Source: an uncultured Dehalococcoidales bacterium | GTDB lineage: Bacteria > Chloroflexota > Dehalococcoidia > GIF9 > AB-539-J10 | Length of the DNA: 38,099 nucleotides | Assembly (NCBI GenBank): GCA_964401175.1 | Contig: CAYNXN010000001.1 | Coordinates: 1 to 38,099 of the forward strand | Direction of reading: 5' to 3' | In this document: positions 1 through 16,270 of the stretch, one piece after another | Numbering within the stretch: the first letter of the stretch is position 1 | Layout of the letters: each line of letters starts with the position of its first letter | The notes under the pieces: model-generated | Told to the model about the DNA's origin: nothing | The model's input: the letters and a program-made list of their open reading frames with translations, nothing else | Database searches by the model: none | Program-made: the position numbers and the translations under genes

Positions 1-643
1 GGAGACCAAGACCAAGCGCCTCGGTAAGACAGTTCATGGTGTTGGCGGTCCACATCCCGGAGCAACTGCCACAGCCAGGGCTGGCGCAATGTTCCATGCG
101 CTGCATACGTTCACGCGTCAGCGAACCGCGTGCGATCTCGCCAACTGCGGCGAAAAGCATCCCCGAGTCCAGTTCCACCTCCATGCGGTCGGGCATTCGG
201 CCGGCCAGCATCGGTCCGCCGCTGACGAAGATGCAGGGCAGGTTGAGCCGGGCGGCCGCCATCAGCATTCCTGGCACGATCTTGTCACAGTTGGGAATGA
301 ACACCAGCGCATCGAACTGATGCGCCTGCGCCATCAGTTCGATTGAGTCGGCGATGACCTCACGGGTGGGCAGAATGTAACGCATGCCGGCGTGTGCTTG
401 TGCCACACCGTCGCACGCGGCGATAGTGTTGAACTCAAAGGGAGTGCCTCCAGCCTCTCTGACCCCGGCTTTGACGGCGTCAGCAATGGTCCGAAGGTGC
501 ACGTGGCCTGGAACAACCTCGCTGAAGCTGTTAACCACTCCCACGAACGGAAGTGCCATCTCGTAGTCGTCGACTCCAGTGGCATGAAGCAGGGAACGGT
601 GTACTCCCCGTTCGAGACCCTTCCTGACCGTGTAGCTTCTCAT
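1..643 (-). CDS. IlvD/Edd-family dehydratase (dihydroxy-acid or aldonate dehydratase), N-terminal 214 codons; 3' part lies outside the window
   Basis: Absent from the ORF track because it runs off the edge. My reverse translation from ATG (643-641) reads [50 protein letters not shown]...[33 protein letters not shown]...[28 protein letters not shown]. This is the conserved N-terminal half of IlvD/Edd enzymes, including the cluster-binding Cys positions. True IlvD cannot be separated from a sugar-acid dehydratase on this fragment. Confidence 0.85.
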
Positions 644-717
644 GCTGTCACCTCTCTGCATTGGTCACCGTGCCAACTCCGTCGATTCACTGCTTTCCCG
701 CTGGTCCTGGTCGAACG

Positions 718-1980
718 TCACTGCGCCATGAGAGGCAAGACGAGCGGCCCCTCCGGGATGACGGCGATATCAGCCCGCGGGCCGATGCGCCTGATAGCCT
801 CTGAAACCGCAGCGTCCAGATCCGACACGGGCTCGATCCACAGGCTGCCAATCAGTTCCGGATCAAGCTCGGAGCGCAGCATGATCTGGTTCCGCATCTG
901 GATGCGGGCGAGAATCTGGTTCTGCCACTGAACACCGATCGGTTCCTCACGCCGTATGCGCTGCATGACGTCGATCGGATTGGCGCATGAACGATGGAGC
1001 GCAACAAAAGAGTCAGGTCCGGCGCCGGCGGAGCAGCTGGAGGCGCTGATGATGATTCCGCCATCCCGCGTAATCACAGACGCGTTGTCCATCCCCTTCA
1101 CCGTCTGGTAGAGATCGAGGTCCAGAGGCGCGCCGCTGTTGGTAGTAACCACGATGTCGACTCTCTGGGGCACATCGACGCCCGTTGTCTCACGTGCAAC
1201 GCGACAACCGGCCTCGTGCGCCTCAACCAGGTCGCCGGCAAACACGGCTGTGATCGCCTTCTGCCTGTTGAGCAGGACGTTCACTATGAAGTCGAGCCTG
1301 GCCATCCTCGCCTGTTCAACCATATCCTCGTGAATCGGATTTCTCGCAAGGACCCCCGCCCGCGCATTGGGGTCGGCGATCATGCGGTAGCCATGATTGA
1401 CATAGGCGGACTCGCGCGCAAAGACCCCCGGAGCGATGCTCTTGCGCCCGCCGGAGAATCCGGCGAAAAAATGCGGCTCAATGAACCCCGTGGCAAGGCG
1501 GAAATCTGCCTCCACCACCAGCCGATTGATGTTCACGGGAGTACCCCGCGTTGTGGTCCCGATGTTCACCACTGCGGATGGATCATGATTCACCACCGTG
1601 TAGTTGGACACGATGGCGTTGCCAAGCAGTTGACGTAGTTCGGCAGTATCGAGCGGCGGGTGGAGACCGAGCGCAACCACGATGGTAATCTGCTGACGAG
1701 GAACCACCGCCTCCAGTTCGGCCAGAATTGGAGGCAGTAGGCGATCATCCGGACACGCCCTGGTGTTGTCGGTGACGATGACCACGACGCGGTCGGTCGG
1801 ACGCACTCGCTCGGCAAGTGGGCGTGAACCGATCGGCTGCCGCAAGGCACTGATGACGGCAGTGTACTCGTCCCGGAGCCCGGCCGTCTGCCGGGGCTCC
1901 AGGACGAACCTGAGATGACGCTTCGGTATCTGTACCGTCAAGTATCTGTTTCCGTACGGCAGTTGAAAAGACTCGTTCAT
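718..1980 (-). CDS. larA: LarA-family nickel-pincer-nucleotide (NPN)-dependent 2-hydroxyacid racemase/epimerase (DUF2088)
   Basis: 420-aa ORF with LarA-type blocks: VVVIVTDNTR, VALGLHPP, GFIEPHFFAGFSGGRKSIAPG, YVNHGYRM and a C-terminal LarA_C-like region. It begins 6 nt after the stop of the upstream oxidase gene. Confidence 0.85.
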   Translation of the reverse strand: MNESFQLPYGNRYLTVQIPKRHLRFVLEPRQTAGLRDEYTAVISALRQPIGSRPLAERVRPTDRVVVIVTDNTRACPDDRLLPPILAELEAVVPRQQITIVVALGLHPPLDTAELRQLLGNAIVSNYTVVNHDPSAVVNIGTTTRGTPVNINRLVVEADFRLATGFIEPHFFAGFSGGRKSIAPGVFARESAYVNHGYRMIADPNARAGVLARNPIHEDMVEQARMARLDFIVNVLLNRQKAITAVFAGDLVEAHEAGCRVARETTGVDVPQRVDIVVTTNSGAPLDLDLYQTVKGMDNASVITRDGGIIISASSCSAGAGPDSFVALHRSCANPIDVMQRIRREEPIGVQWQNQILARIQMRNQIMLRSELDPELIGSLWIEPVSDLDAAVSEAIRRIGPRADIAVIPEGPLVLPLMAQ

Positions 1981-1986
1981 AATGCC

Positions 1987-3357
1987 CTACCTGATGGCGG
2001 CGCCCGGGTTCAGTATGTTGTTTGGATCGAACAGCTTCTTGATACCGCGCATGATCTCTTCTTGCTTGGGGTCCATTAGCAGGGCGAGATACTTCAATCG
2101 TATCTTGCCGACGCCATGCTCCCCGGTCACCACGCCACCCAACTTGATGGCAGCCTCATAGATCGCCTGCTTCACCTCTTCGGCCGTGCCTCGTTCAACG
2201 AGTTCCTTGAGCATGTACGGGTGGAAGTTCCCGTCGCCCGCATGCGCGATGGTGAATATCTCCGTGTCGTATTTGGCCGCGATGTCATCGAGTGCATCGA
2301 GCATCTTACCGAGGCTCGCAGGAGGAACGGTGATGTCGGAGTCGCCGGCGATGAGCGGCTTCATCGCAGAATACACCTCACTGCGTATCTTGAGAATGTC
2401 CGCCTGCTCTTGCTGTCGCTCGGCGATAAGTACGTTGACGGCCCCGTTGTTCTGACAGACCTCGGACATCGTCTCCGCCTGGAAGTACACGTCATCCTCG
2501 TTGGCGCCTGCAAGAATCAGGATCAGGTGCGCGATTCCGGTCTGCGCCGGCCATTTCATGCCGAGATTGTCCGCCGACATCGTGATGACCTTGTGATCTA
2601 CATACTCGATGGCCATGGGTATCACGCCGCTCTGCAGTATCTTCGGTACGGTGTTGATCGCCTTGTGACGATCGTCGAAGGACACCACCAGCGTGGCGGT
2701 CCCCGCGAACTTTGGATAAAGACGCATGGTCGCTTTGGTGATTATTCCAAGAATCCCTTCACTGTCAATCAGCAACTGCATGAGGTCGAGACCGGTGTTG
2801 TTCTTGAGCAGCTTGCCGCCCATGGTTGTGATCTCGCCGGTAGGGAGAACCACCTCCATGCCCTTGACGTACTGCCGCACGACTCCGTACTTGACCGCGC
2901 GCGAGCCGCCGGCATTCGCGGCGATCATGCCACCAACCTGAGCGCCTTCGTCGCCGGGATGCGGCGGAAACAACAGATTGGCTTTGTCGACCGCCTCAAG
3001 CAGTTGCGCCAGCGTAACTCCAGCCTGAGCAACCACCATCAGGTTCTCAGTGTCGACCTCCTCCACCTTATCGAAGCGTTCCATGGACAGGACGATGCCG
3101 TCCTGCGTAGGCACCGCACCGCAAACGAGGCCGGTCCCGGCGCCGCGCGGATAGACCGGCGTCTTGTCACGGTTTGCCAGCTTGAGAATCTCGGAGATCT
3201 CCTCAGACGTCCCTGGCTTGACCACAACCACGTGCTCCGCCGGTTCCAGCCGCTGCGCCGCTGTGGTCTCGTCATATAGATACGTCTGCATCTGGGCCCG
3301 ATCAGTGATGACCCAATCCGGCCCGACGATAGCTTTAAGACCCTCGACATCAATCAT
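1987..3357 (-). CDS. FAD-linked oxidase / D-2-hydroxyacid dehydrogenase, GlcD family (paralog 1)
   Basis: Track ORF is 1987..3381. I trimmed the start to ATG 3357 because AAGGAGGA lies 9 nt upstream and the paralogs start at the equivalent residue (MIDVEGLKAIVGPDW). FAD_binding_4 and FAD-oxidase_C blocks are present: YPRGAGTG, NAGGSRAVKYGVVRQYV, GKLLKNNTGLDL, HAGDGNFHP, GEHGVGK. Confidence 0.85.
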   Translation of the reverse strand: MIDVEGLKAIVGPDWVITDRAQMQTYLYDETTAAQRLEPAEHVVVVKPGTSEEISEILKLANRDKTPVYPRGAGTGLVCGAVPTQDGIVLSMERFDKVEEVDTENLMVVAQAGVTLAQLLEAVDKANLLFPPHPGDEGAQVGGMIAANAGGSRAVKYGVVRQYVKGMEVVLPTGEITTMGGKLLKNNTGLDLMQLLIDSEGILGIITKATMRLYPKFAGTATLVVSFDDRHKAINTVPKILQSGVIPMAIEYVDHKVITMSADNLGMKWPAQTGIAHLILILAGANEDDVYFQAETMSEVCQNNGAVNVLIAERQQEQADILKIRSEVYSAMKPLIAGDSDITVPPASLGKMLDALDDIAAKYDTEIFTIAHAGDGNFHPYMLKELVERGTAEEVKQAIYEAAIKLGGVVTGEHGVGKIRLKYLALLMDPKQEEIMRGIKKLFDPNNILNPGAAIR

Positions 3358-3422
3358 GGTAGTGCTTCCTCCTTGTTCCAATCAGTGTCGTTCCGTGCTG
3401 TTATCTCTATGCTGCGCCCGGG

Positions 3423-4793
3423 CTACTTCACCGCCGAGTCAGGACTGAGTATGTGGTTCGGGTCGAACAGGTGCTTCAGTCCGCGCATCAGCTCAAGCGA
3501 CCTGGCATCGATGCACATATCCAGTTCGGCCAGCCTGGTCTTTCCGATGCCGTGTTCCCCGCTGATGACGCCGCCCAACTCGATGGCTTTGGCGTATATC
3601 TTGCGCTTCACCTCGGTCGCCAGCCCCCGTTCTTTCAATTCGAGCATAAGGTGCGGGTGGAAGTTGCCGTCCCCGGCATGTGCCACCATCGGGATTCTGG
3701 TCTTGTACTGCGCCGCAAGAGTGTCCACCACATCCATCATGTCGCCAACCGCAGCCGGCGGAACCGTAACGTCGAGTATCTCCGCCAGTTCCGCTTTGTA
3801 GGTCATGCTCTCCTCGCTGCGTATCCGCAGTATGTGTGCCTGTTCCTCCCGGCTCTCAGCCATAAGCGTGTCGACCGCGCCGCTGGCTTCGCAGACCTCA
3901 GAGATCTGCTGGCATTGTTCGTAGACATCGTCTTCATTCGTACCAGTGACGATCACAATCAGATGCGACCTGCCTTTCGTCGCCGGCCAGGTTGTGCCCA
4001 GATACCGGGCGGTGTCCTCCATCAGATCGCGGTCGACGTATTCGATCGCCATCGGGATGACTCCCGCCTGGAGTATCCTCGGGACGGCTCGAATCGCAGC
4101 ATGGCGGTCATCGAACGACACCACCAGGGTGGCCGGTCCTGCGAACTTCGGATAGAGTCTGAGTACCACCTTGGTGATGATGCCCAGGATGCCTTCACTG
4201 TCAATCATCAGATGCATCAGGTCCAGGCCGGTGTTGTTCTTGAGCAGCTTGCCGCCCATGGTGATGATCTCCCCGGTGGGCAGCACCACCTCGAGGCCCT
4301 TAACGTAGTTCCGAACCACGCCGTATTTGACGGCCCTGGTACCTCCGGCGTTGCACGCCACCAATCCACCGAGCTGCGCCCCTTCATCTCCCGGGTGAGG
4401 TGGAAACAGCAGTCCGCGTGATTCCACCGCCTCCAGCAACTGGGCCAGTGTTACCCCGGCCTCGGCAACAACCATCAGGTTCTCGCTGTCAACCTCAAGC
4501 ACCTTATCCAGACGCTCGAGGGACACGATGACTCCATCACGTGTAGGGATGGACCCCGCGCACACCCCGGTGCCTCCTCCACGCGGATAGATGGGGAAGG
4601 AATCCTCGTTCGCCAGCTTCACCACCCGCGCGATCTCATCGGTGTTTGCCGGTTTGACCACGACAACCCGGTCGGCTGGCCGCATGATGAGACCGGTGTA
4701 CGTCTCATCCACCAGGTATCTGGCCATCTGCTCGCGGTCTGTGACGACCCAATCCTCGCCCACAATGTCCTTCAATCTGCCGACATCAAACAT
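3423..4793 (-). CDS. FAD-linked oxidase / D-2-hydroxyacid dehydrogenase, GlcD family (paralog 2)
   Basis: 456-aa ORF with the same blocks as paralog 1: YPRGGGTG, NAGGTRAVKYGVVRNYV, HAGDGNFHP, GEHGIGK. GGAGAGGAG lies upstream of the ATG. Confidence 0.85.
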   Translation of the reverse strand: MFDVGRLKDIVGEDWVVTDREQMARYLVDETYTGLIMRPADRVVVVKPANTDEIARVVKLANEDSFPIYPRGGGTGVCAGSIPTRDGVIVSLERLDKVLEVDSENLMVVAEAGVTLAQLLEAVESRGLLFPPHPGDEGAQLGGLVACNAGGTRAVKYGVVRNYVKGLEVVLPTGEIITMGGKLLKNNTGLDLMHLMIDSEGILGIITKVVLRLYPKFAGPATLVVSFDDRHAAIRAVPRILQAGVIPMAIEYVDRDLMEDTARYLGTTWPATKGRSHLIVIVTGTNEDDVYEQCQQISEVCEASGAVDTLMAESREEQAHILRIRSEESMTYKAELAEILDVTVPPAAVGDMMDVVDTLAAQYKTRIPMVAHAGDGNFHPHLMLELKERGLATEVKRKIYAKAIELGGVISGEHGIGKTRLAELDMCIDARSLELMRGLKHLFDPNHILSPDSAVK

Positions 4794-4834
4794 GTACAGA
4801 ATTCTCCTCTCCAGGGATTAGTCGTCTCGAAGCC

Positions 4835-5995
4835 TCAGATGGTTGGACCAACAGTATAGATGTTGGAATTGACACCGGACGAATCGTACTGCAGCAGTTC
4901 TGCCTTGACTGCCTCACCCGAGAACACGCGGAGAACCGCGTCAAACACGCGCGAGCCCGCCGATTCGACCGTCTCTATGCCGGAAACGATGTTGCTGACG
5001 TCAAGATCGATGTACTCAGAGAGCAACTGGCACGTATGGGCGTTACCTGACACCTTGATGACCGGCGCGAGCGGAAAGCCTTGCGGCGCGCCGATGCCAG
5101 TGGAGAAGAGCATCACCTGGCAGCCGGCCGAAGCAAGACCCGTCAGGAACTCCATCTCACGTCCCGGCGAGTCCATGAAGTACAACCCGGGTGCCGGCGG
5201 GCGTTCGCCGTAGCGCACGACGCCGGTGATGGGACAGGTGCCCGACTTCACTATCGCACCAAGTGATTTCTCCTCGATTGTCGTCAATCCGCCGCGTATG
5301 TTGCCCTCGGTCGGCTGCCCTCCGCGCATATCAACACCCATGACACTTGCCCGGGCTTCCATGGCGTTGACGCAATCGAGGAGCTTCCCGGCCACCTCGG
5401 CCGTGGCCGCACGACGCACAAGGATGTGTTCCGCGCCGATCACCTCGGTTGTCTCACCGAATATAACCGTGGCTCCCGCCTGGACCAGCCTGTCCGCAGC
5501 ATTTCCCACCGCCGTATTCGATGCGAGTCCTGAGGTGGTGTCCGATGCACCGCACTTGACCCCGATCACAAGTTCCCGCAGCGAAGCCTCACGTCCTGTG
5601 GAGTCGAGGCCCGATGCAAAGCGACGTGCCGCCTCAAGGCCGTGGGCGACTGCGCGGGTAATGCCACCAACGGCCTGGACCCGCACAAGAGAAATCGGTT
5701 TGTGTGCTTCCACGGCGGCGACGATGTCCTCGGCAGTCACCGACTCGCAGCCCAGGCTGACCAGAACCACAGCAGCCACATTCGGATTAAGGCAGATGCC
5801 GGTGAGCGCATCGGTGACCAGCTTGACGTCAGTCGGCAACTGACAACAACCCTGGTGGTGCAGCATCGGCCGCGCCTCGGGAACGCTGGCGGCGATCCTG
5901 CGTGCGACTTCATTGACACAGCCCACCGTGGGAATCACCGCAACGTAGTTGCGTGCTCCCGCCGGTCCGGTACTGCGCGCAAAACCGTGCAACAT
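4835..5995 (-). CDS. UxaA-family (altronate/galactarate-type) dehydratase, large catalytic domain only, no SAF domain
   Basis: Track ORF is 4835..6034 (GTG). I prefer ATG 5995 because GGAGGTG lies 4 nt upstream. The protein starts directly in the GD_AH_C-type domain: ARNYVAVIPTVGC...HHQGCCQ...VSLGCES...GVKCGASDTTSG...GNIRGGLTTIEEKSLGA. Confidence 0.8.
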   Translation of the reverse strand: MLHGFARSTGPAGARNYVAVIPTVGCVNEVARRIAASVPEARPMLHHQGCCQLPTDVKLVTDALTGICLNPNVAAVVLVSLGCESVTAEDIVAAVEAHKPISLVRVQAVGGITRAVAHGLEAARRFASGLDSTGREASLRELVIGVKCGASDTTSGLASNTAVGNAADRLVQAGATVIFGETTEVIGAEHILVRRAATAEVAGKLLDCVNAMEARASVMGVDMRGGQPTEGNIRGGLTTIEEKSLGAIVKSGTCPITGVVRYGERPPAPGLYFMDSPGREMEFLTGLASAGCQVMLFSTGIGAPQGFPLAPVIKVSGNAHTCQLLSEYIDLDVSNIVSGIETVESAGSRVFDAVLRVFSGEAVKAELLQYDSSGVNSNIYTVGPTI

Positions 5996-6035
5996 CGCAC
6001 ACCTCCATCGAATCTGATTCAGAATCGTTGCCACC

Positions 6036-7412
6036 CTACGGAATGGCAGTGCCGGGATTGAGGATGCCGTTCGGATCGAACAACCGCTTCAGGCCGCGCA
6101 TCAACTCGATCGACTTATCGTCCAGACACAGGGGCATCTCCTTGAGGCGTATCTTGCCCACGCCATGTTCGGCCGTGATCACACCGCCGAGTGCGGCTGC
6201 CGCGGCGTAGAGCTCCCGCTTCACCGCCTGCAATTGACCCCTGTCATGCAGCTCCAGAGGCAGATGCGGATGCAGGTTGCCATCGCCGGCGTGTCCATAG
6301 GTGATGATGCGCGTTCCATACTTTCGGCCAATTTCATCGACGGTATCCAGAAAACCCGCGATGTCGGCGGGCGGTATCGCCATGTCAAGAACGTCCGCAA
6401 CGCGTGGTTTCAGCACGGGATACAGCTCACTTCGTATCTTGAGGATGTCCGCCTGTTCTTCCCGTGTCTCGGCCATCACAGTGTCCACGACACCGAGGGT
6501 TTCACACACCTTCAGGACATCAGAGGCCTGCTGGTACACGTCATCGTCGCTACTACCCGTGATGATGGCGATGAGGTGAGCGGTACCCTTCCGCGCCGGC
6601 CATTGCTTTCCAAGATGGGCGGCGGAAATCTCTATGACGTCTCTCTCAACGTACTCCAGCGCCAGTGGAATGACGCCTGTCTGCAGTATCTTCGGCACGG
6701 CTTTGATTGCCGCATGCCGGTCATCGAAGGAGATCACGAGGGTTGCCGTGCTGGCGGACCTGGGATAGAGCCTGAAAACGACCTTCGTGACTATTCCCAG
6801 CACGCCTTCGGAATCGATCATGAGATGCAGCAGGTCAAGTCCAGTGTTGTTCTTCAACAATTTGCCGCCCATGGTGATGATCTCGCCAGTCGGCAGCACA
6901 ACTTCCAGACCCTTGACGTACTGTCGAACAACGCCGTACTTGACGGCGCGAGTGCCGCCGGCATTGCAGACCACAAGGCCTCCCAGTTGAGCTCCCTCGT
7001 CGCCAGGATGCGGTGGAAAGGAGAGACCAACCGCTTCGACAGCACGCAGCAGCTTGTCCAGCGTCGCACCGGCCTCTGCGACCACCATGAGGTTGTCGGT
7101 GTCGACTTCGAGAATGCGGTCAAGACGCTCCAGAGAAAGCACGATCCCGCCGCGGGTCGGCACCGCCGCTCCGACGCATCCCGTACCACCTCCGCGCGGG
7201 ACCACAGGAACGAGCCGACGGTTTGCCATTCGCATGATTTGTGAGATCTGCTCGGCGTCGGCCGGCTTGACCACCACCACATCGTCGCCCGGGACGGGGC
7301 AGACCGGCAGCGCGGTCACATCCAGCAGGTACGATTGCATCGCTTCACGTTCGGTCACCACCCAATCCGGCCCGACGATTTCTCTCAGCTCAGCAAGCAC
7401 TTCGTTGTTCAC
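6036..7412 (-). CDS. FAD-linked oxidase / D-2-hydroxyacid dehydrogenase, GlcD family (paralog 3)
   Basis: Track ORF is 6036..7433. I trimmed the start to GTG 7412 because AAGGAGGA lies immediately upstream and the N-terminus (MNNEVLAELREIVGPDW) then aligns with the paralogs. Blocks: VPRGGGTG, NAGGTRAVKYGVVRQYV, HAGDGNLHP, AEHGVGK. Confidence 0.85.
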   Translation of the reverse strand: MNNEVLAELREIVGPDWVVTEREAMQSYLLDVTALPVCPVPGDDVVVVKPADAEQISQIMRMANRRLVPVVPRGGGTGCVGAAVPTRGGIVLSLERLDRILEVDTDNLMVVAEAGATLDKLLRAVEAVGLSFPPHPGDEGAQLGGLVVCNAGGTRAVKYGVVRQYVKGLEVVLPTGEIITMGGKLLKNNTGLDLLHLMIDSEGVLGIVTKVVFRLYPRSASTATLVISFDDRHAAIKAVPKILQTGVIPLALEYVERDVIEISAAHLGKQWPARKGTAHLIAIITGSSDDDVYQQASDVLKVCETLGVVDTVMAETREEQADILKIRSELYPVLKPRVADVLDMAIPPADIAGFLDTVDEIGRKYGTRIITYGHAGDGNLHPHLPLELHDRGQLQAVKRELYAAAAALGGVITAEHGVGKIRLKEMPLCLDDKSIELMRGLKRLFDPNGILNPGTAIP

Positions 7413-7830
7413 CTGTCCTCCTTGATCACCCACGCACTAACCCGGCTCGCGAACCCGCTGCCACTACGCAGCAGGCCGGAATGCGTTCGAGGAAGGGAAA
7501 TGTCCGACGGGAGCGATGGGACCGTCGCCGCCACAAACCAGTGGCAGAGCCGGCGAGAAGCCAGTAGCAGAACGACCGGGAGCGGCCCTGGCGGTAGAAC
7601 GATGGCGCGCCGTTCAGTGGAATCAAGTGACTGATCTCCTGCCGCGACGCGAGGAGCCGTCCGGCCGATGCGTGCCAAGGGACAAGGTGTCCTGCGTCCG
7701 GTCAGGCGAATTCTACACTTCCATGCCGACCTTTGGTATACCGCACACATGTGAGACGGCGCTGTGAACGACCTTGACGCTCGCGATAACTCGATGCTAC
7801 TCTTGCGAAATCAGTTCCGAGTCACAGGGC

Positions 7831-9498
7831 ATGGAAGACGACACCAAGACCCGCCGCGTCTCAACCAGCGATGACATCGAGGTATCCACGTATCTCGGCA
7901 TCGCCAGTTCCCTCCAGACCGAGCAGACCGAACCCAAGGAAGCTGCGCCAGTCTCTGGGCGTGAAACCATCGTTATCCTTGATTTCGGATCTCAGTACAG
8001 CATGCTGATAGCCCGCAGGATTCGTGAGTGTCACGTGTACTGCGAGATCTTGCCGAACGATACGCCGTGGGAGCGTATCGCCCCCCTCAATCCGAAGGGA
8101 TTTGTGCTCTCTGGCGGACCGGCCAGCGTGTATGCGGCTGGAGCACCGCTGGCGCCCACGTACGTCTACGAGCGAGGCCTGCCCGTGCTTGGTATCTGCT
8201 ATGGCATGCAGGCGATTGCACATCAGTTGGGCGGCAAAGTGACGCCGGGAGAGCGACGCGAATATGGCCACTCAGTGCTCCACCTTGACGTTGATGACTC
8301 TCCGTTGTTTGAGGGGTTGCCTCCGTCAACACCGGTCTGGATGAGCCATGGCGACGTGGTGAGCGAGTTGCCTGCGGGGTTCAAGGCGCTTGCCTACACC
8401 GAGAATTCGCGCTACGCCGTGATCGGTAACGAACAGAACGTCTTCGGCCTGCAGTTTCACCCGGAGGTGACGCACACCCCTGAGGGGCGCCGACTCATCG
8501 AGAACTTCTTGTATCGCATCTGCGGCTGCAGCGGCAACTGGACACCGGCGCAGTTCATCACCGAGAGCGTTCAGCGGATTCGAGAGCAGGTCAAGGATGG
8601 CAAGGTGGTCTGTGCCTTGTCGGGCGGAGTCGATTCGGCTGTCACCGCAACGCTGATTCACCGCGCGATCGGTGACAATCTCACGTGTTTCTTCATCAAC
8701 AACGGCCTTCTTCGGCGTGAGGAGCCGGAGCGTGTCCTGAACACCTTCGCCAACAACCTGAAGGTTCGAGTTGTGTACGTGGACGCCACGGATCGCTTCC
8801 TGCGCAGACTACGTGGCGTGATCGACCCCGAGCAGAAGCGCCGCATCGTCGGAGAGGAATTCATCCACATCTTCGAGGAGGAGGCGGCGGCGCTGGGCAC
8901 GGTCGACTTCCTGGCGCAGGGTACGGTGTATCCTGATGTGATCGAGAGCGCCAGTTCGGCCGAAAACAAGGCGGCGGCCCGAATCAAGAGCCATCACAAC
9001 GTTGGTGGACTGCCGGCCACGATGCGACTCAATCTCGTTGAGCCGCTGCGGTATCTGTTCAAGGATGAGGTGCGGGAGGTCGGACTTGCGCTTGGTCTCC
9101 CAGAGGAGATGGTCTGGCGCCAACCCTTCCCCGGACCGGGTCTTTCGATACGTGTGATCGGTGAGGTTACGCGGGAAAGGCTGGAGATTCTTCGTGCCGC
9201 TGATTGGATCGTGATGCAGGAGATCAAGCGCGCGAACCTGTATGGAAGGTTGTGGCAAAGCTTCGCGGTGCTCACTGATGTGCGGAGCGTAGGCGTTATG
9301 GGTGACTCCAGGACGTACGGATACCTCATTGCCATTCGAGCGGTTACCAGTACTGACGCCATGACTGCTGACTGGGCCAGGCTGCCGTACGAGTTGCTCG
9401 ACAGGATGGCGGATCGAATCGTCAATGAAGTCCCGCACGTGAATCGCGTTGTCTACGATGTGACCAGCAAACCCCCCGCCACCATTGAATGGGAGTAA
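7831..9498 (+). CDS. guaA: GMP synthase (glutamine-hydrolysing)
   Basis: GATase-1 domain ([33 protein letters not shown]) plus ATP-PPase and dimerisation domains (SGGVDSAV, C-terminal KPPATIEWE). Start is ATG 7831 or TTG 7774. Either gives an N-terminal extension of at least 45 aa before the canonical ILDFGSQY. Confidence 0.9.
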
Positions 9499-9604
9499 TC
9501 GCGCCGGAGCTTCGCCTGCCACGCTTGAATGCACCGGAACAGTCATTCGCTCACGAGTATTGCGCTAGTATGGTATTCCGGTCGACAAGGAGAAACGGCA
9601 TCGC

Positions 9605-10870
9605 GTGAGAGTACTGGTGGTTGGAAGCGGCGGGCGGGAGCACGCGCTCGTCTGGAAGCTGGCGCAAAGCCGTCGCGTGACCGATATTCTGGTTGCGCCC
9701 GGGAATGCCGGCACAGCTACAATTGCCGAGAACGTTCCGATTGCTGCCACCGACCTCGTTGCCCTTGTTGAATTGGCGCTCCGTCGACGTGTTGACCTCG
9801 TCGTCGTGGGCCCTGAGGTCCCTCTGGCGCTCGGACTGGTCGATGCGCTGCAAGAGGAGGGCGTATCGGCCTTCGGACCGACAAGGGCGGCGGCGCGCCT
9901 CGAGGCAAGCAAGGCATTTGCGCATGATGTGATGCGACGGTCCGGCGTGCCCTGCGCCCGCTGCGGCGTCTTCACCGCGGTCGGACCCGCACGTGAATTC
10001 GGATTGTCACTCGAGCCTCCCTATGTGGTCAAGGCGGATGGTCTGGCCGCGGGAAAGGGCGCAGTCATCGTCTCATCTCACCGCGAAGCCGCGACGACGC
10101 TCGTCGACATGCTGGAACGGCGTGTCTTTGGAGCCGCCGGCGAACGTGTCGTGATTGAAGAGTACCTCTCCGGCCAGGAGGTGAGCCTCCTCGCCTTCAC
10201 CGACGGCGAAGAAGTGGTTGCGATGGTGCCTTCTTGTGACTACAAGCGCGCCTGCGATTACGACGAGGGGCCAAACACTGGAGGAATGGGCTGTTACTCA
10301 CCACCGGGGTTCTTCGACCAGGATATGGTCGTGCGCGCTACCGAGGGCGCGGTGCGGCCCGTAATCCGGCAGCTCGCGGAGGATGGCGTGGTCTACAGAG
10401 GGGTGGTGTACGCGGGGCTGATGATTGACGGTGACGACATCAAGGTGCTGGAGTTCAACGCGCGATTTGGCGATCCGGAGACCCAGGTTGTGCTTCCGCG
10501 GCTTGAGAGCGATCTTGCTGAGGTGATGTGCGCCTGTGTCGAAGGGCGCCTCAAACCGGAACTGGTCCAATGGAAGCCAGGCTGCGCTGTGGCCGTGGTG
10601 CTTGCCTCCGGCGGATACCCGGGCCAGTACCGCAAGGGATATCCCATCCTCGGATTGGACCTTGTTGACCACGACGTGAATGTGTTCCACGCCGGTACAT
10701 GCATTGATAGCGATGGCAAGACCGTGACTGATGGGGGACGTGTCCTGGCGGTCGTTTCCGCCGGTGCTTCGATGGCTGAGGCGCGAGAGCGCGTGTACAG
10801 CAATGTCGCGAGGCTTTCATTCACCGACGTGATGTATCGAACTGATATCGCGCTCAGGGAGGTGGCGTAG
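9605..10870 (+). CDS. purD: phosphoribosylamine-glycine ligase
   Basis: MRVLVVGSGGREHALVWKLAQS, ATP-grasp core, EFNARFGDPETQ. AAGGAGAAA lies upstream of the GTG start. Confidence 0.95.
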   Translation: MRVLVVGSGGREHALVWKLAQSRRVTDILVAPGNAGTATIAENVPIAATDLVALVELALRRRVDLVVVGPEVPLALGLVDALQEEGVSAFGPTRAAARLEASKAFAHDVMRRSGVPCARCGVFTAVGPAREFGLSLEPPYVVKADGLAAGKGAVIVSSHREAATTLVDMLERRVFGAAGERVVIEEYLSGQEVSLLAFTDGEEVVAMVPSCDYKRACDYDEGPNTGGMGCYSPPGFFDQDMVVRATEGAVRPVIRQLAEDGVVYRGVVYAGLMIDGDDIKVLEFNARFGDPETQVVLPRLESDLAEVMCACVEGRLKPELVQWKPGCAVAVVLASGGYPGQYRKGYPILGLDLVDHDVNVFHAGTCIDSDGKTVTDGGRVLAVVSAGASMAEARERVYSNVARLSFTDVMYRTDIALREVA

Positions 10871-14600: not shown

Positions 14601-15572
14601 TCACCTCGCAAGCACTTTCATCAGGTAGAGCAGCTCCGTGTCCAGCTCCTTCTGTAGCTTCCAGGTCCGTTCAAACGGCGTCTCAACCACCTTGTTGTTG
14701 AGCAGTCCGACCATCACACCACTTCTGCCTTCCACAAGAGCCAGTACGGCTCCGGCGCCAAGTTTCGAGGCTAACAGTCGATCCTGCGCCGACGGAGGAC
14801 CACCCCGCTGCACATGTCCGATAACGCACACCCGATAATCCATGACGAGTCGGTTTCCCAGCTTCGCCGCGACTTCGAACGCGTGCCCCGCATCATCACC
14901 CTCTGCTACCACCACGATGCTGGCGCGTTTGCCCGAGGCATGCTGCTCGGTGATGCTGGCCACCAGTTCATCCAGATTTGTCGGAACCTCCGGTACCAGC
15001 ACATCCTCGGCGCCGCCCGCGATGCCCACACTCAAGGCGATAAACCCCCGGGTGCGGCCCATCACCTCCACGAAGAAGAGCCGTTCATGTGCTTCAGCGG
15101 TATCACGCAGACGGTCGATGGCCTGAAGGGCGGTATTCACCGCCGTATCGAAACCGATGGTTGAGTCAGTGCCGTAGAGGTCGTTGTCGATGGTCCCCGG
15201 CACACCCACCACGTGAACATCAGATATCTCGGAGAGCGCCTGAGCCCCTCGAAACGTCCCATCGCCTCCGATGGCCACCAGCCCGCCGACATCGAGCGCC
15301 GCGAGATTGGCGGCAGCCTTACGCAGTCCCGCAGCGGTCTTCATCTCTTCGCAGCGAGCGGTGCCCAGCATCGTGCCGCCCCGGTGGATGATGTTCGCCA
15401 CGGACCTCGGCCCCATCTCCAGCACGTCGCCATCCAGCAGCCCGGCATACCCGCGCCGAATCCCCACCACCTCAAGGTTCTGGGCGATGGCGCACCGTAC
15501 CACGGCGCGAATTGCGGCGTTCATCCCGGGCGCATCGCCGCCGCTCGTCAGCACTCCGATCCGTCGCATCAT
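14601..15572 (-). CDS. pfkA: ATP-dependent 6-phosphofructokinase (PfkA family)
   Basis: RIGVLTSGGDAPGMNAAIRAVVR, IGGDGTFRGA and GVPGTIDND (Gly at both positions that separate ATP- from PPi-dependent enzymes), VMGRTRG, GHVQRGG. Confidence 0.9.
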   Translation of the reverse strand: MMRRIGVLTSGGDAPGMNAAIRAVVRCAIAQNLEVVGIRRGYAGLLDGDVLEMGPRSVANIIHRGGTMLGTARCEEMKTAAGLRKAAANLAALDVGGLVAIGGDGTFRGAQALSEISDVHVVGVPGTIDNDLYGTDSTIGFDTAVNTALQAIDRLRDTAEAHERLFFVEVMGRTRGFIALSVGIAGGAEDVLVPEVPTNLDELVASITEQHASGKRASIVVVAEGDDAGHAFEVAAKLGNRLVMDYRVCVIGHVQRGGPPSAQDRLLASKLGAGAVLALVEGRSGVMVGLLNNKVVETPFERTWKLQKELDTELLYLMKVLAR

Positions 15573-15679
15573 ACTGTCAACCTCGCGTTACAGACTATCA
15601 CAACAAGCCGGAAGAAGACACACCGGCAGACCGGAGACGAGCCTCTGGAAATGTGAGGAGTCAAAGGGGAGTCCCCAGC

Positions 15680-16270
15680 TCAAGGTGCAAGAGTGCCTTT
15701 GCTGCTGGGCACGACGTCGATAGACCGTGGGTCCTTAGCGCAGGCACAACGCAGCGCCCTTCCAAAGGCTTTGAACAGCGACTCTGCCTTATGGTGGTCG
15801 TTCTCGCCAGCCTCGACTCGTGCGTGCAACGTAATCCGGGCCTCGACAGCGAGAGATATGAAGAAGTGACGCACCATATCGGCTTCAAGCTCGCTGATCG
15901 TAGCATGTGAGAACGGCGCCGTAAGGTGAGCGCCACCTCGGCCGCTGATATCGATGGCGACACATGACAGCGCCTCGTCCATCGGCACCAGGGCGTGTGC
16001 CATGCGAACAATCCCTCTCTTATCGCCGAGCGCCTGCGACAGCGCCTGGCCGAAGCAGATGGCCACATCCTCAACGACGTGGTGCTGGTCATCGCCCGTG
16101 GCAGTGATACTGAGGTCCAGCATGCCATGCCGCGCGATCTGGGTCAGGAAATGGTCGAGCATCTGGATGCCAGTGCCGATCCTGGACTCTCCGGCGCCGT
16201 CCAGGTTCAACTCGACGTCGACTTTGGTCTCCGTAGTCTGTCGCGCAGACCGGCCCTTTCTACAACTCAC
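15680..16270 (-). CDS. hisB: imidazoleglycerol-phosphate dehydratase
   Basis: IGTGIQMLDHFLTQIARHG, GDDQHHVVEDVAI, ENDHHKAESLFKAFGRAL. The track ORF (to 16399) overlaps hisC by 140 nt. GTG 16270 gives a normal 196-aa HisB and an 11-nt overlap with the hisC stop. Confidence 0.9.
   Translation of the reverse strand: MSCRKGRSARQTTETKVDVELNLDGAGESRIGTGIQMLDHFLTQIARHGMLDLSITATGDDQHHVVEDVAICFGQALSQALGDKRGIVRMAHALVPMDEALSCVAIDISGRGGAHLTAPFSHATISELEADMVRHFFISLAVEARITLHARVEAGENDHHKAESLFKAFGRALRCACAKDPRSIDVVPSSKGTLAP

Follow-up and report, generated by a model that had tools for sequence, protein, structure and literature searches.

The first 38,099 bases (hereafter the window) of contig CAYNXN010000001.1 (C1), taken from a 1.54 Mb, 72%-complete metagenome-assembled genome (MAG) of an uncultured Dehalococcoidales bacterium, begin with an operon of six co-oriented genes on the minus strand, which we examined as a putative utilization system for 2-hydroxy acids. 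The genes are transcribed in the order ox3-uxaA-ox2-ox1-larA-ilvD, the last being incomplete. The first gene, ox3 (6036–7412, 458 aa, GTG start), like ox2 (3423–4793, 456 aa) and its sister paralog ox1 (1987–3357, 456 aa from the ATG at 3357, with a TTG at 3381 as a possible alternative start upstream), encodes an LctD-like flavin adenine dinucleotide (FAD)-dependent D-2-hydroxyacid dehydrogenase with FAD_binding_4 and FAD-oxidase_C domains. The uxaA-like gene (4835–5995, 386 aa) encodes only the large, catalytic part of a UxaA/GarD-superfamily dehydratase (GD_AH_second and GD_AH_C domains, no SAF domain), and larA (718–1980, 420 aa; Lar_N and LarA_C domains) encodes a nickel-pincer-nucleotide 2-hydroxyacid racemase assigned to the lactate-racemase (LAR) group. 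The ilvD-like gene (2–643 or 2–661; PF00920, 259 bits) contributes the N-terminal 214–220 aa of its product before running off the contig, its likely start being the ATG at 643 that follows the Shine-Dalgarno sequence GAGAGGTGA. The intergenic gaps from ox3 to ilvD measure 40, 41, 65, 6, and 74 nt, and a clear Shine-Dalgarno site precedes each gene (AAGGAGG before ox3 and ox1, GGAGGTG before the uxaA-like gene, GGAGAGGAG before ox2) except larA, where it is weak. Neither terminator-like sites between the genes nor internal promoters within the operon rose above shuffled-sequence expectation. An initial annotation, made from the sequence alone, had described six minus-strand genes in this order with close spacing and Shine-Dalgarno sites; Pfam-domain gene calls bore out the order, and the spacing and sites held as well, apart from the weak site of larA.

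The same annotation had described the three FAD enzymes as GlcD-type oxidases, roughly 55–65% identical by eye. The identity estimate agreed with our measurement (61.5–63.8% pairwise, with 63.8% between ox1 and ox2), but the family assignment was not borne out. Against TIGR00387, the GlcD equivalog, the enzymes scored 323–356 bits (cut-off 568), and their closest solved relative is 7QH2_C, the LctD of the Acetobacterium woodii Ldh-EtfAB complex (297 bits for ox1). An identity as glycolate oxidase GlcDEF was rejected because these scores lie far below the cut-off and GlcE and GlcF are absent; the window holds no GlcE/GlcF, CCG, or electron-transferring flavoprotein (ETF) gene, which confirms the earlier remark that the oxidases have no GlcE/GlcF-type or Fe-S partner beside them. 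The active-site residues of mouse LDHD (PMC10589216) were mapped by alignment onto these enzymes and onto a fourth paralog of the same genome (ox4, described below). The subsite A residues that provide the metal, carboxylate, and base functions (Arg347, His398, His405, Glu442, and His443 in mouse LDHD) are kept as R, H, H, E, and H in ox1 to ox4. At the subsite B positions Val101, Trp351, Ser365, and Ile407, the pocket reads L/Y/D/Y in ox1, V/S/I/H in ox2, C/Y/V/H in ox3, and M/Q/S/I in ox4, and each set is invariant across the species scored, except that ox2 of one relative (L018) has Tyr for His at the Ile407 position. Paralog-specific pockets of this kind would show the pattern expected of sub-functionalized enzymes with different substrates. 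Separately, an exact 35-nt run shared by ox1 and ox2, with exactly two occurrences in the window (2792–2826 and 4228–4262), suggests a short gene-conversion tract between these sister paralogs.

A candidate electron acceptor for the dehydrogenases is encoded elsewhere in the genome. Contig C53 (locus L007, 231–3408, minus strand) carries etfB (274 aa), etfA (329 aa), and ox4 (456 aa) with overlapping stop and start codons; ox4 is 58–60% identical to ox1–3, and its position directly after etfB-etfA is the classical LctBCD arrangement. The EtfAB of this contig is the probable electron acceptor of the window's three dehydrogenases, a coupling that we assume since the ETF genes lie outside the operon.

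The best solved relatives of the window LarA are 9EID, a broad-spectrum LarA, and the lactate racemases 5HUQ and 2YJG, with the malate racemase Mar2 scoring lower. Its best LarA model, by 53 bits, is NF033504, the NCBIfam lactate racemase, against which it reached 455.5 bits (cut-off 460). Residues equivalent to Arg75, His108, His174, Lys184, and His200 (LarA1 numbering) are kept, and H107, H170, K180, H196, and the Arg of DNTR each align with the corresponding residue of 5HUQ. The specificity residues F171, F172, W352, and Q353 correspond to the 5HUQ positions F175, F176, W358, and T359, and the combined signature HHFFKHWQ is common to all LarA orthologs. Lactate racemases carry F, F, W, and E/Q at positions 175, 176, 358, and 359, and LarAH43, an enzyme with Q at the last position, works most efficiently on glycerate and lactate; other substrates go with other signatures, namely H/Q,K for malate, Y,F,H/Q,T for 2-hydroxyglutarate, and E,V,A,H for gluconate (Urdiain-Arraiza 2024, PMC11770544). 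Judged by these residues, the window LarA belongs to the LAR group with a predicted lactate/glycerate-type pocket, and malate, tartrate, and 2-hydroxyglutarate were ruled out as its substrates by the residues F,F,W,Q. The gene larC lies on contig C89 of the same genome and in 7/7 relatives tested, while larB adjoins larC in six relatives and was not recovered in our 72%-complete MAG. Given larC in the genome itself and larC-larB in its relatives, the nickel-pincer cofactor can probably be made.

The UxaA-like protein aligns with residues 124–503 of GarD (6U7L), beginning in the second domain, and scored 212 bits against the GarD equivalog (cut-off 731). It keeps 91 of the 92 columns conserved at ≥95% among 82 homologs, and the four conserved cysteines (C26, C50, C83, and C148) are all present. 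These cysteines form the conserved iron site of the superfamily and are absent only from the sulfolactate sulfo-lyase SuyAB (Watanabe 2019, PMC6336799), so that their retention favors an active hydroxy-acid dehydratase over a SuyB-type lyase. A profile derived from four SAF small-subunit sequences detected no SAF subunit gene in the loci of the genus; outside the genus, a SAF open reading frame (ORF) stands beside nearly every UxaA homolog. The genome itself holds only two SAF ORFs, which accompany other UxaA copies on contigs C61 and C104. In the tree, copies from Aerophobetes, Spirochaetota, and a haloarchaeon form the sister group of the SAF-less clade. Because the relatives of this gene sit in sugar-acid clusters and the genus loci are without SAF, we conclude that the dehydratase was recruited into an Lct-like core from a sugar-acid context and lost its SAF partner.

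Across the genus, large-subunit genes of the UxaA type number 5–13 per genome, many of them in tandem arrays. Contig C8 of the relative G001 (L113, 3546–16729) carries six within 13 kb, together with two SAF subunits and one IlvD-like gene, and further arrays lie on contigs G416:C13 and G406:C66. Since SAF genes are few in these arrays, SAF-less copies, often in adjacent pairs, are common in the lineage; we found no description of this expansion in the literature. On contig C61 (L004, 2–6409, minus strand), the genome under study encodes a glycerate-kinase-like protein (DUF4147/MOFRL), a SAF subunit, a UxaA large subunit, a LarA homolog, an FAH-family protein, and a 2-oxoacid:ferredoxin oxidoreductase. 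The LarA homolog of this module is closest to malate/tartrate racemase models, and the module, which matches the association of LarAH group 5 (Mar1) with COG2721 (Desguin 2020), looks like a tartrate- or malate-type route in which a dehydratase would yield oxaloacetate and a decarboxylase pyruvate.

The IlvD fragment of the window best matched PRK00911 and TIGR00110 among the NCBIfam models, the partial copy reaching 281 bits over 200 of the 543 positions of the ilvD equivalog model. A full-length ortholog in the relative locus L012, 87% identical to the fragment, passes TIGR00110 (718 bits vs a cut-off of 618), and a second IlvD copy on contig C81 of the same genome likewise passes. Genomes of the genus contain 4–6 IlvD-family paralogs; the operon-type ortholog (at least 86% identical) occurs in 4/8 genomes examined, and other paralog groups occur in 8/8. 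An attempt to recognize the housekeeping ilvD by its linkage to ilvC failed, as ilvC lies on another contig without any ilvD paralog beside it, and the argument for an accessory ilvD is therefore made from the presence/absence pattern only. The initial annotation had considered that the window copy might prove to be the housekeeping ilvD followed by ilv genes. In the relatives, the genes directly after ilvD are dctPQM and not ilv genes, and this, together with the lack of an adjacent ilvC and the presence of the ortholog in half of the genomes, speaks against that possibility and for an accessory paralog. In locus L018, the C-terminal half of ilvD persists as a frameshifted relic (15207–16007) between larA and dctP1, which shows that the gene had been acquired and then decayed. 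Among the loci compared, ilvD follows larA in five (the window, L012, L013, L015, and L106) and is absent from L011, L014, and L017; it is a facultative, accessory, and repeatedly lost member of the operon. On contig C104 (L005, 3093–5558, minus strand), another IlvD paralog immediately precedes a UxaA large subunit and a SAF subunit, and the IlvD + UxaA pairing thus recurs outside the window operon.

Relatives were searched with one genome per species, and all of them are labelled Dehalococcoidia or Chloroflexota. The search yielded 10–11 Dehalococcoidia loci with a UxaA-like protein at 73–82% identity, and the order guaA | ox3-uxaA-ox2-ox1-larA is identical in all loci long enough to show it, including the divergent arrangement of guaA and ox3. 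The full order, ox3-uxaA-ox2-ox1-larA-[ilvD]-dctPQM-dctPQM, was seen in about 10 species. Because the same order recurs in 10–11 species-level relatives, the arrangement is not due to chance, and the doubt raised at the outset as to whether the neighborhood is conserved has been settled in its favor. An orthologous uxaA occurs in 13/16 genomes of the genus, the window's MAG counted; all other genera of the family are without it, as is a class-wide sample of 300 genomes. Downstream on the same strand, the relatives carry dctP-dctQ-dctM, usually followed by a second dctPQM set, so that one or two tripartite ATP-independent periplasmic (TRAP) transporters supply the transporter whose absence from the visible part the initial annotation had noted. 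They also show that the operon reaches past the window start, as had been proposed: the window starts at the end of contig C1, which truncates the operon at position 1, and the same genome offers no continuation, as neither the C-terminus of ilvD nor an orthologous TRAP was found on any of its contigs (best DctM match 59%). Membership varies among species, as ox3 is missing in L016 and survives as a remnant in L025, where uxaA is split into two frames. The stable core therefore comprises uxaA-ox2-ox1-larA with TRAP, to which ox3 is usually and ilvD sometimes added, and the six-gene operon first described is better given as five genes plus TRAP with a facultative ilvD. The TRAP binding proteins of the genus most resemble TTHA0766 (lactate-binding), a keto-acid-binding protein, and a TakP entry; nothing specific on the ligands of PDB entries 4PET and 5CM6, which are probably pyruvate complexes, was found in the literature.

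On the other side of the operon, the genes guaA, purD, purE, and purB lie upstream and are divergently transcribed, separated from ox3 by a noncoding spacer of about 360 nt (7413–7773) that presumably holds the operon promoter, although no sigma-70-like site was found in it. A 113-aa ORF at 7409–7750 in this spacer had no Pfam match, and the idea that it might encode an overlooked SAF subunit or a regulator was dropped. No riboswitch or other RNA of an Rfam family was detected at E ≤ 0.1 in positions 1–10000 of the window, and no regulator gene was seen near the operon in the window or in any relative. In the relative G001, an ADP-forming acyl-CoA synthetase lies downstream of the operon; past the second TRAP set, its contig C3 (L101, 5118–15461) carries two tandem panB genes, a ketopantoate-reductase-like gene, and another IlvD paralog, and thereafter an acetyl-CoA hydrolase/transferase-GNAT fusion, the synthetase just mentioned, and a DRTGG-domain protein.

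Two further Chloroflexota clusters combine LarA with several LctD-type enzymes, and we found no description of either in the literature. The first (L111), located at the same guaA-purD-purE-purB locus as the window operon, reads rpiB-etfB-etfA-larA-ox-ox-ox-larAH-CoA transferase, and the second (L112) reads dctM-etfB-etfA-ox-larA-ox-enolase-glycerate-kinase-like. Their LarA proteins are 61–62% identical to the window LarA and carry the same HHFFKHWQ signature, their FAD paralogs are 62–68% identical to ox1, and the DctM of L112 is 61% identical to the DctM1 of the genus (relative L012). Unlike the window operon, both have etfBA in cis and contain no UxaA-like or IlvD gene; the enolase and the glycerate-kinase-like gene are particular to L112, and the second LarA homolog and the CoA transferase to L111. 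In the tree, the dehydrogenases were duplicated independently in each lineage. These etfBA-larA-LctD clusters likely represent the ancestral design of the operon.

Taken together, these observations point, with a probability of roughly 0.6, to a genus-specific, mosaic, and expanded Lct-type system for the utilization of small 2-hydroxy monocarboxylates. Small 2-hydroxy monocarboxylates would be taken up by TRAP transporters, whose genes are present in the relatives and were not recovered in our own MAG; the most likely substrates would be D/L-lactate and glycerate, possibly joined by 2-hydroxybutyrate and other short 2-hydroxy or 2,3-dihydroxy acids. LarA, with its nickel-pincer cofactor, would interconvert the L and D forms, and ox1–3, by virtue of their differing pockets, may each oxidize their own set of D-2-hydroxy acids to 2-oxo acids, passing the electrons to the EtfAB encoded beside the fourth paralog. 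The UxaA-type dehydratase, with the IlvD paralog where it is present, would convert 2,3-dihydroxy acids directly into 2-oxo acids by dehydration (glycerate into pyruvate, for example), and the 2-oxo acids are predicted to enter ferredoxin-dependent oxidation and substrate-level phosphorylation. The proposal of the initial annotation that the genes form one catabolic unit for 2-hydroxy acids is upheld in that the gene order is conserved and LarA would feed D-specific FAD dehydrogenases. For the dehydratases, glycerate appears to be the most attractive candidate substrate, since the LarA pocket is of the glycerate/lactate type and L112 couples the same set to a glycerate-kinase-like gene and an enolase. 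A third reason is a known side activity of IlvD-family enzymes, which turn D-glycerate into pyruvate by dehydration.

Several observations weigh against an Lct-type system for small acids. The pockets were mapped through an alignment of sequences about 30% identical, in which an indel falls close to one of the positions; the ETF genes are not adjacent to ox1–3 and lie outside the operon; and LarA falls 4.5 bits below the cut-off of the NF033504 lactate-racemase model. The metagenomic relatives of the UxaA-like protein, 59–63% identical to it, sit in genuine sugar-acid clusters together with KduI, a KduD-like SDR, KDPG aldolase (Eda), a PfkB kinase (KdgK), an HpcH aldolase, an aldehyde:ferredoxin oxidoreductase, an unrelated TRAP, and LarA, and since these are its nearest relatives, its substrate could be a larger sugar acid. 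We also know of no characterized UxaA/GarD enzyme that acts on glycerate, nor of one that works without a SAF domain or subunit. The alternative that we take most seriously is an aldonate or aldarate module in which LarA would epimerize C2 of an aldonate, the UxaA- and IlvD-like enzymes would form 2-keto-3-deoxy acids, and the FAD enzymes would oxidize sugar-acid hydroxyls. Characterized UxaA/GarD and IlvD/Edd enzymes do act mostly on sugar acids, and the sugar-acid clusters just described are the closest context of this protein outside the genus. However, a kinase, an aldolase, or a 2-keto-3-deoxy-acid enzyme was found in or next to the operon in 0 of about 10 species, and LarA has the small-pocket residues F,F,W,Q and not the E,V,A,H of gluconate epimerase. 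The transporters point the same way, as the TRAP of the sugar clusters is unrelated (23–27% identical), whereas the DctM of the genus is 61% identical to that of an ETF-LctD-LarA cluster, and its binding proteins resemble lactate and keto-acid binders. The aldonic or aldaric substrate proposed in the initial annotation therefore gives way to small monocarboxylates, and we regard a sugar-acid module as unlikely.

It is also conceivable that the operon serves lactate alone, with LarA and redundant LctD-like paralogs, and that the uxaA-like and ilvD genes are passengers or belong to branched-chain amino-acid or pantothenate synthesis. LarA, LctD, ETF, and a transporter do constitute a known lactate system, ilvD is dispensable and was lost four times, its L012 ortholog passes the dihydroxyacid dehydratase equivalog model, and ox3 was lost in two species. 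A passenger role is nevertheless hard to reconcile with a uxaA gene held between oxidase genes at 40–41 nt spacing in most operon-keeping species and with its 91/92 conserved positions; redundancy is opposed by the conserved pocket signature of each paralog; and a biosynthetic role fits poorly with an operon ilvD that is one of 4–6 paralogs, absent from half of the genomes, and without an adjacent ilv gene. We rank this explanation behind the sugar-acid module and consider it improbable. Sulfonates are common in sediments, and a sulfolactate pathway was also considered, in which the UxaA-like protein would be a SuyB-type (2R)-sulfolactate sulfo-lyase and LarA a sulfolactate racemase; within the UxaA/GarD superfamily, to which it belongs, SuyAB alone has been described as consisting of two separate subunits. 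The SuyAB identity was rejected on the grounds that C26, C50, C83, and C148 are all present, whereas SuyAB is without these cysteines (Watanabe 2019, PMC6336799), and that the SuyA/SAF small subunit is missing. The neighborhood contains no sulfite exporter or reductase, and LarA has no equivalent of the Lys that accompanies the second acidic group in malate racemases, all of which makes a role in sulfolactate degradation highly improbable.

Within the Lct-type system for small hydroxy acids that we favor, a more specific and rather doubtful possibility is a previously undescribed route in which the LAR-type LarA and the SAF-less UxaA would together dehydrate both enantiomers of glycerate, or of another short 2,3-dihydroxy acid, directly to the 2-oxo acid without a kinase. 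If true, this would be the first UxaA/GarD enzyme working without SAF and on a C3–C4 substrate, the route would run beside three ETF-linked dehydrogenases of differing specificity, and it would fit the expansion of SAF-less UxaA genes in the genus, which could then serve as a toolkit for small hydroxy acids of varied stereochemistry. Dehalococcoidia that do not dehalogenate abound in anoxic sediments and digesters; to our knowledge, none of this lineage has been cultured, and their carbon sources are largely guessed. The operon offers a testable prediction, namely that both enantiomers of hydroxy acids derived from fermentation (lactate, glycerate, and related compounds) would be scavenged via TRAP, LarA, and ETF-linked dehydrogenases. 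It also provides test cases for enzyme specificity, comprising three naturally occurring LctD variants that differ in their pockets and a UxaA/GarD dehydratase without SAF.

The system does not constitute a new class, as the racemase-dehydrogenase logic is established and the pairing of a nickel racemase with a UxaA-type enzyme is in the literature. The commonest neighbors of LarA group 1 are COG0277 dehydrogenases (35%), ETF (33%), and lactate permease (Desguin 2020 Table S1), and since these neighbors have been tabulated, the racemase-dehydrogenase-transporter core is a known kind of system. The initial annotation did not recognize the gene combination as a described pathway; this holds for the added dehydratases and the triplication, but LarA with an FAD dehydrogenase (and ETF) was already described in lct clusters and by Desguin 2020. 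This exact gene set was not found described in the literature, and searches on LarA with UxaA, on a glycerate dehydratase with SAF, and on Dehalococcoidia with these enzymes returned nothing specific. The dehydratase shares its second and C-terminal domains, four cysteines, and catalytic core with E. coli UxaA, GarD (6U7L), and the D-arabinonate dehydratase of Herbaspirillum huttiense (Watanabe 2019, PMC6336799), but it lacks their entire N-terminal SAF (beta-clip) domain and has no SAF subunit nearby.

Modules that join LarA to a split UxaA, either of Desguin group 5 or of the LarAH42-like kind in gut Bacillota and Spirochaetota, likewise combine a nickel racemase or epimerase with a UxaA/GarD dehydratase, a pairing that presumably lets both stereoisomers reach the dehydratase. 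In gut and rumen Bacillota and Spirochaetota (L034–L090; e.g., L048 8366–11158 and L077 8373–12582), we observed the latter as a three-gene module of LarA, a SAF subunit, and a UxaA large subunit, followed by a GntP permease in the Treponema version; its LarA scores 559–599 bits, passes the lactate-racemase model, and carries the specificity residues W,C as in LarAH42. Unlike the window operon, such modules always include a SAF subunit and are without FAD dehydrogenases, and their specificity residues are W,C or of the malate-racemase type, as opposed to W,Q in the window LarA. The closest described counterpart is the lct operon of Acetobacterium woodii and gut bacteria, which comprises LctBC (EtfBA), LctD (FAD-dependent D-lactate dehydrogenase), LctE (permease), and LctF (LarA racemase) (Weghoff 2015; 7QH2; Sheridan 2022, PMC8914356). 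The window operon resembles it in placing a LarA-group racemase beside LctD-type dehydrogenases, with an ETF partner in the genome and a dedicated carboxylate transporter, and it would follow the same logic, in which the L form is racemized to the D form and the D form is oxidized to pyruvate. It differs in having three dehydrogenase paralogs with distinct pockets instead of one, etf genes located elsewhere with a fourth paralog, TRAP uptake in the genus in place of the LctP permease, two added dehydratase genes, and no regulator gene.

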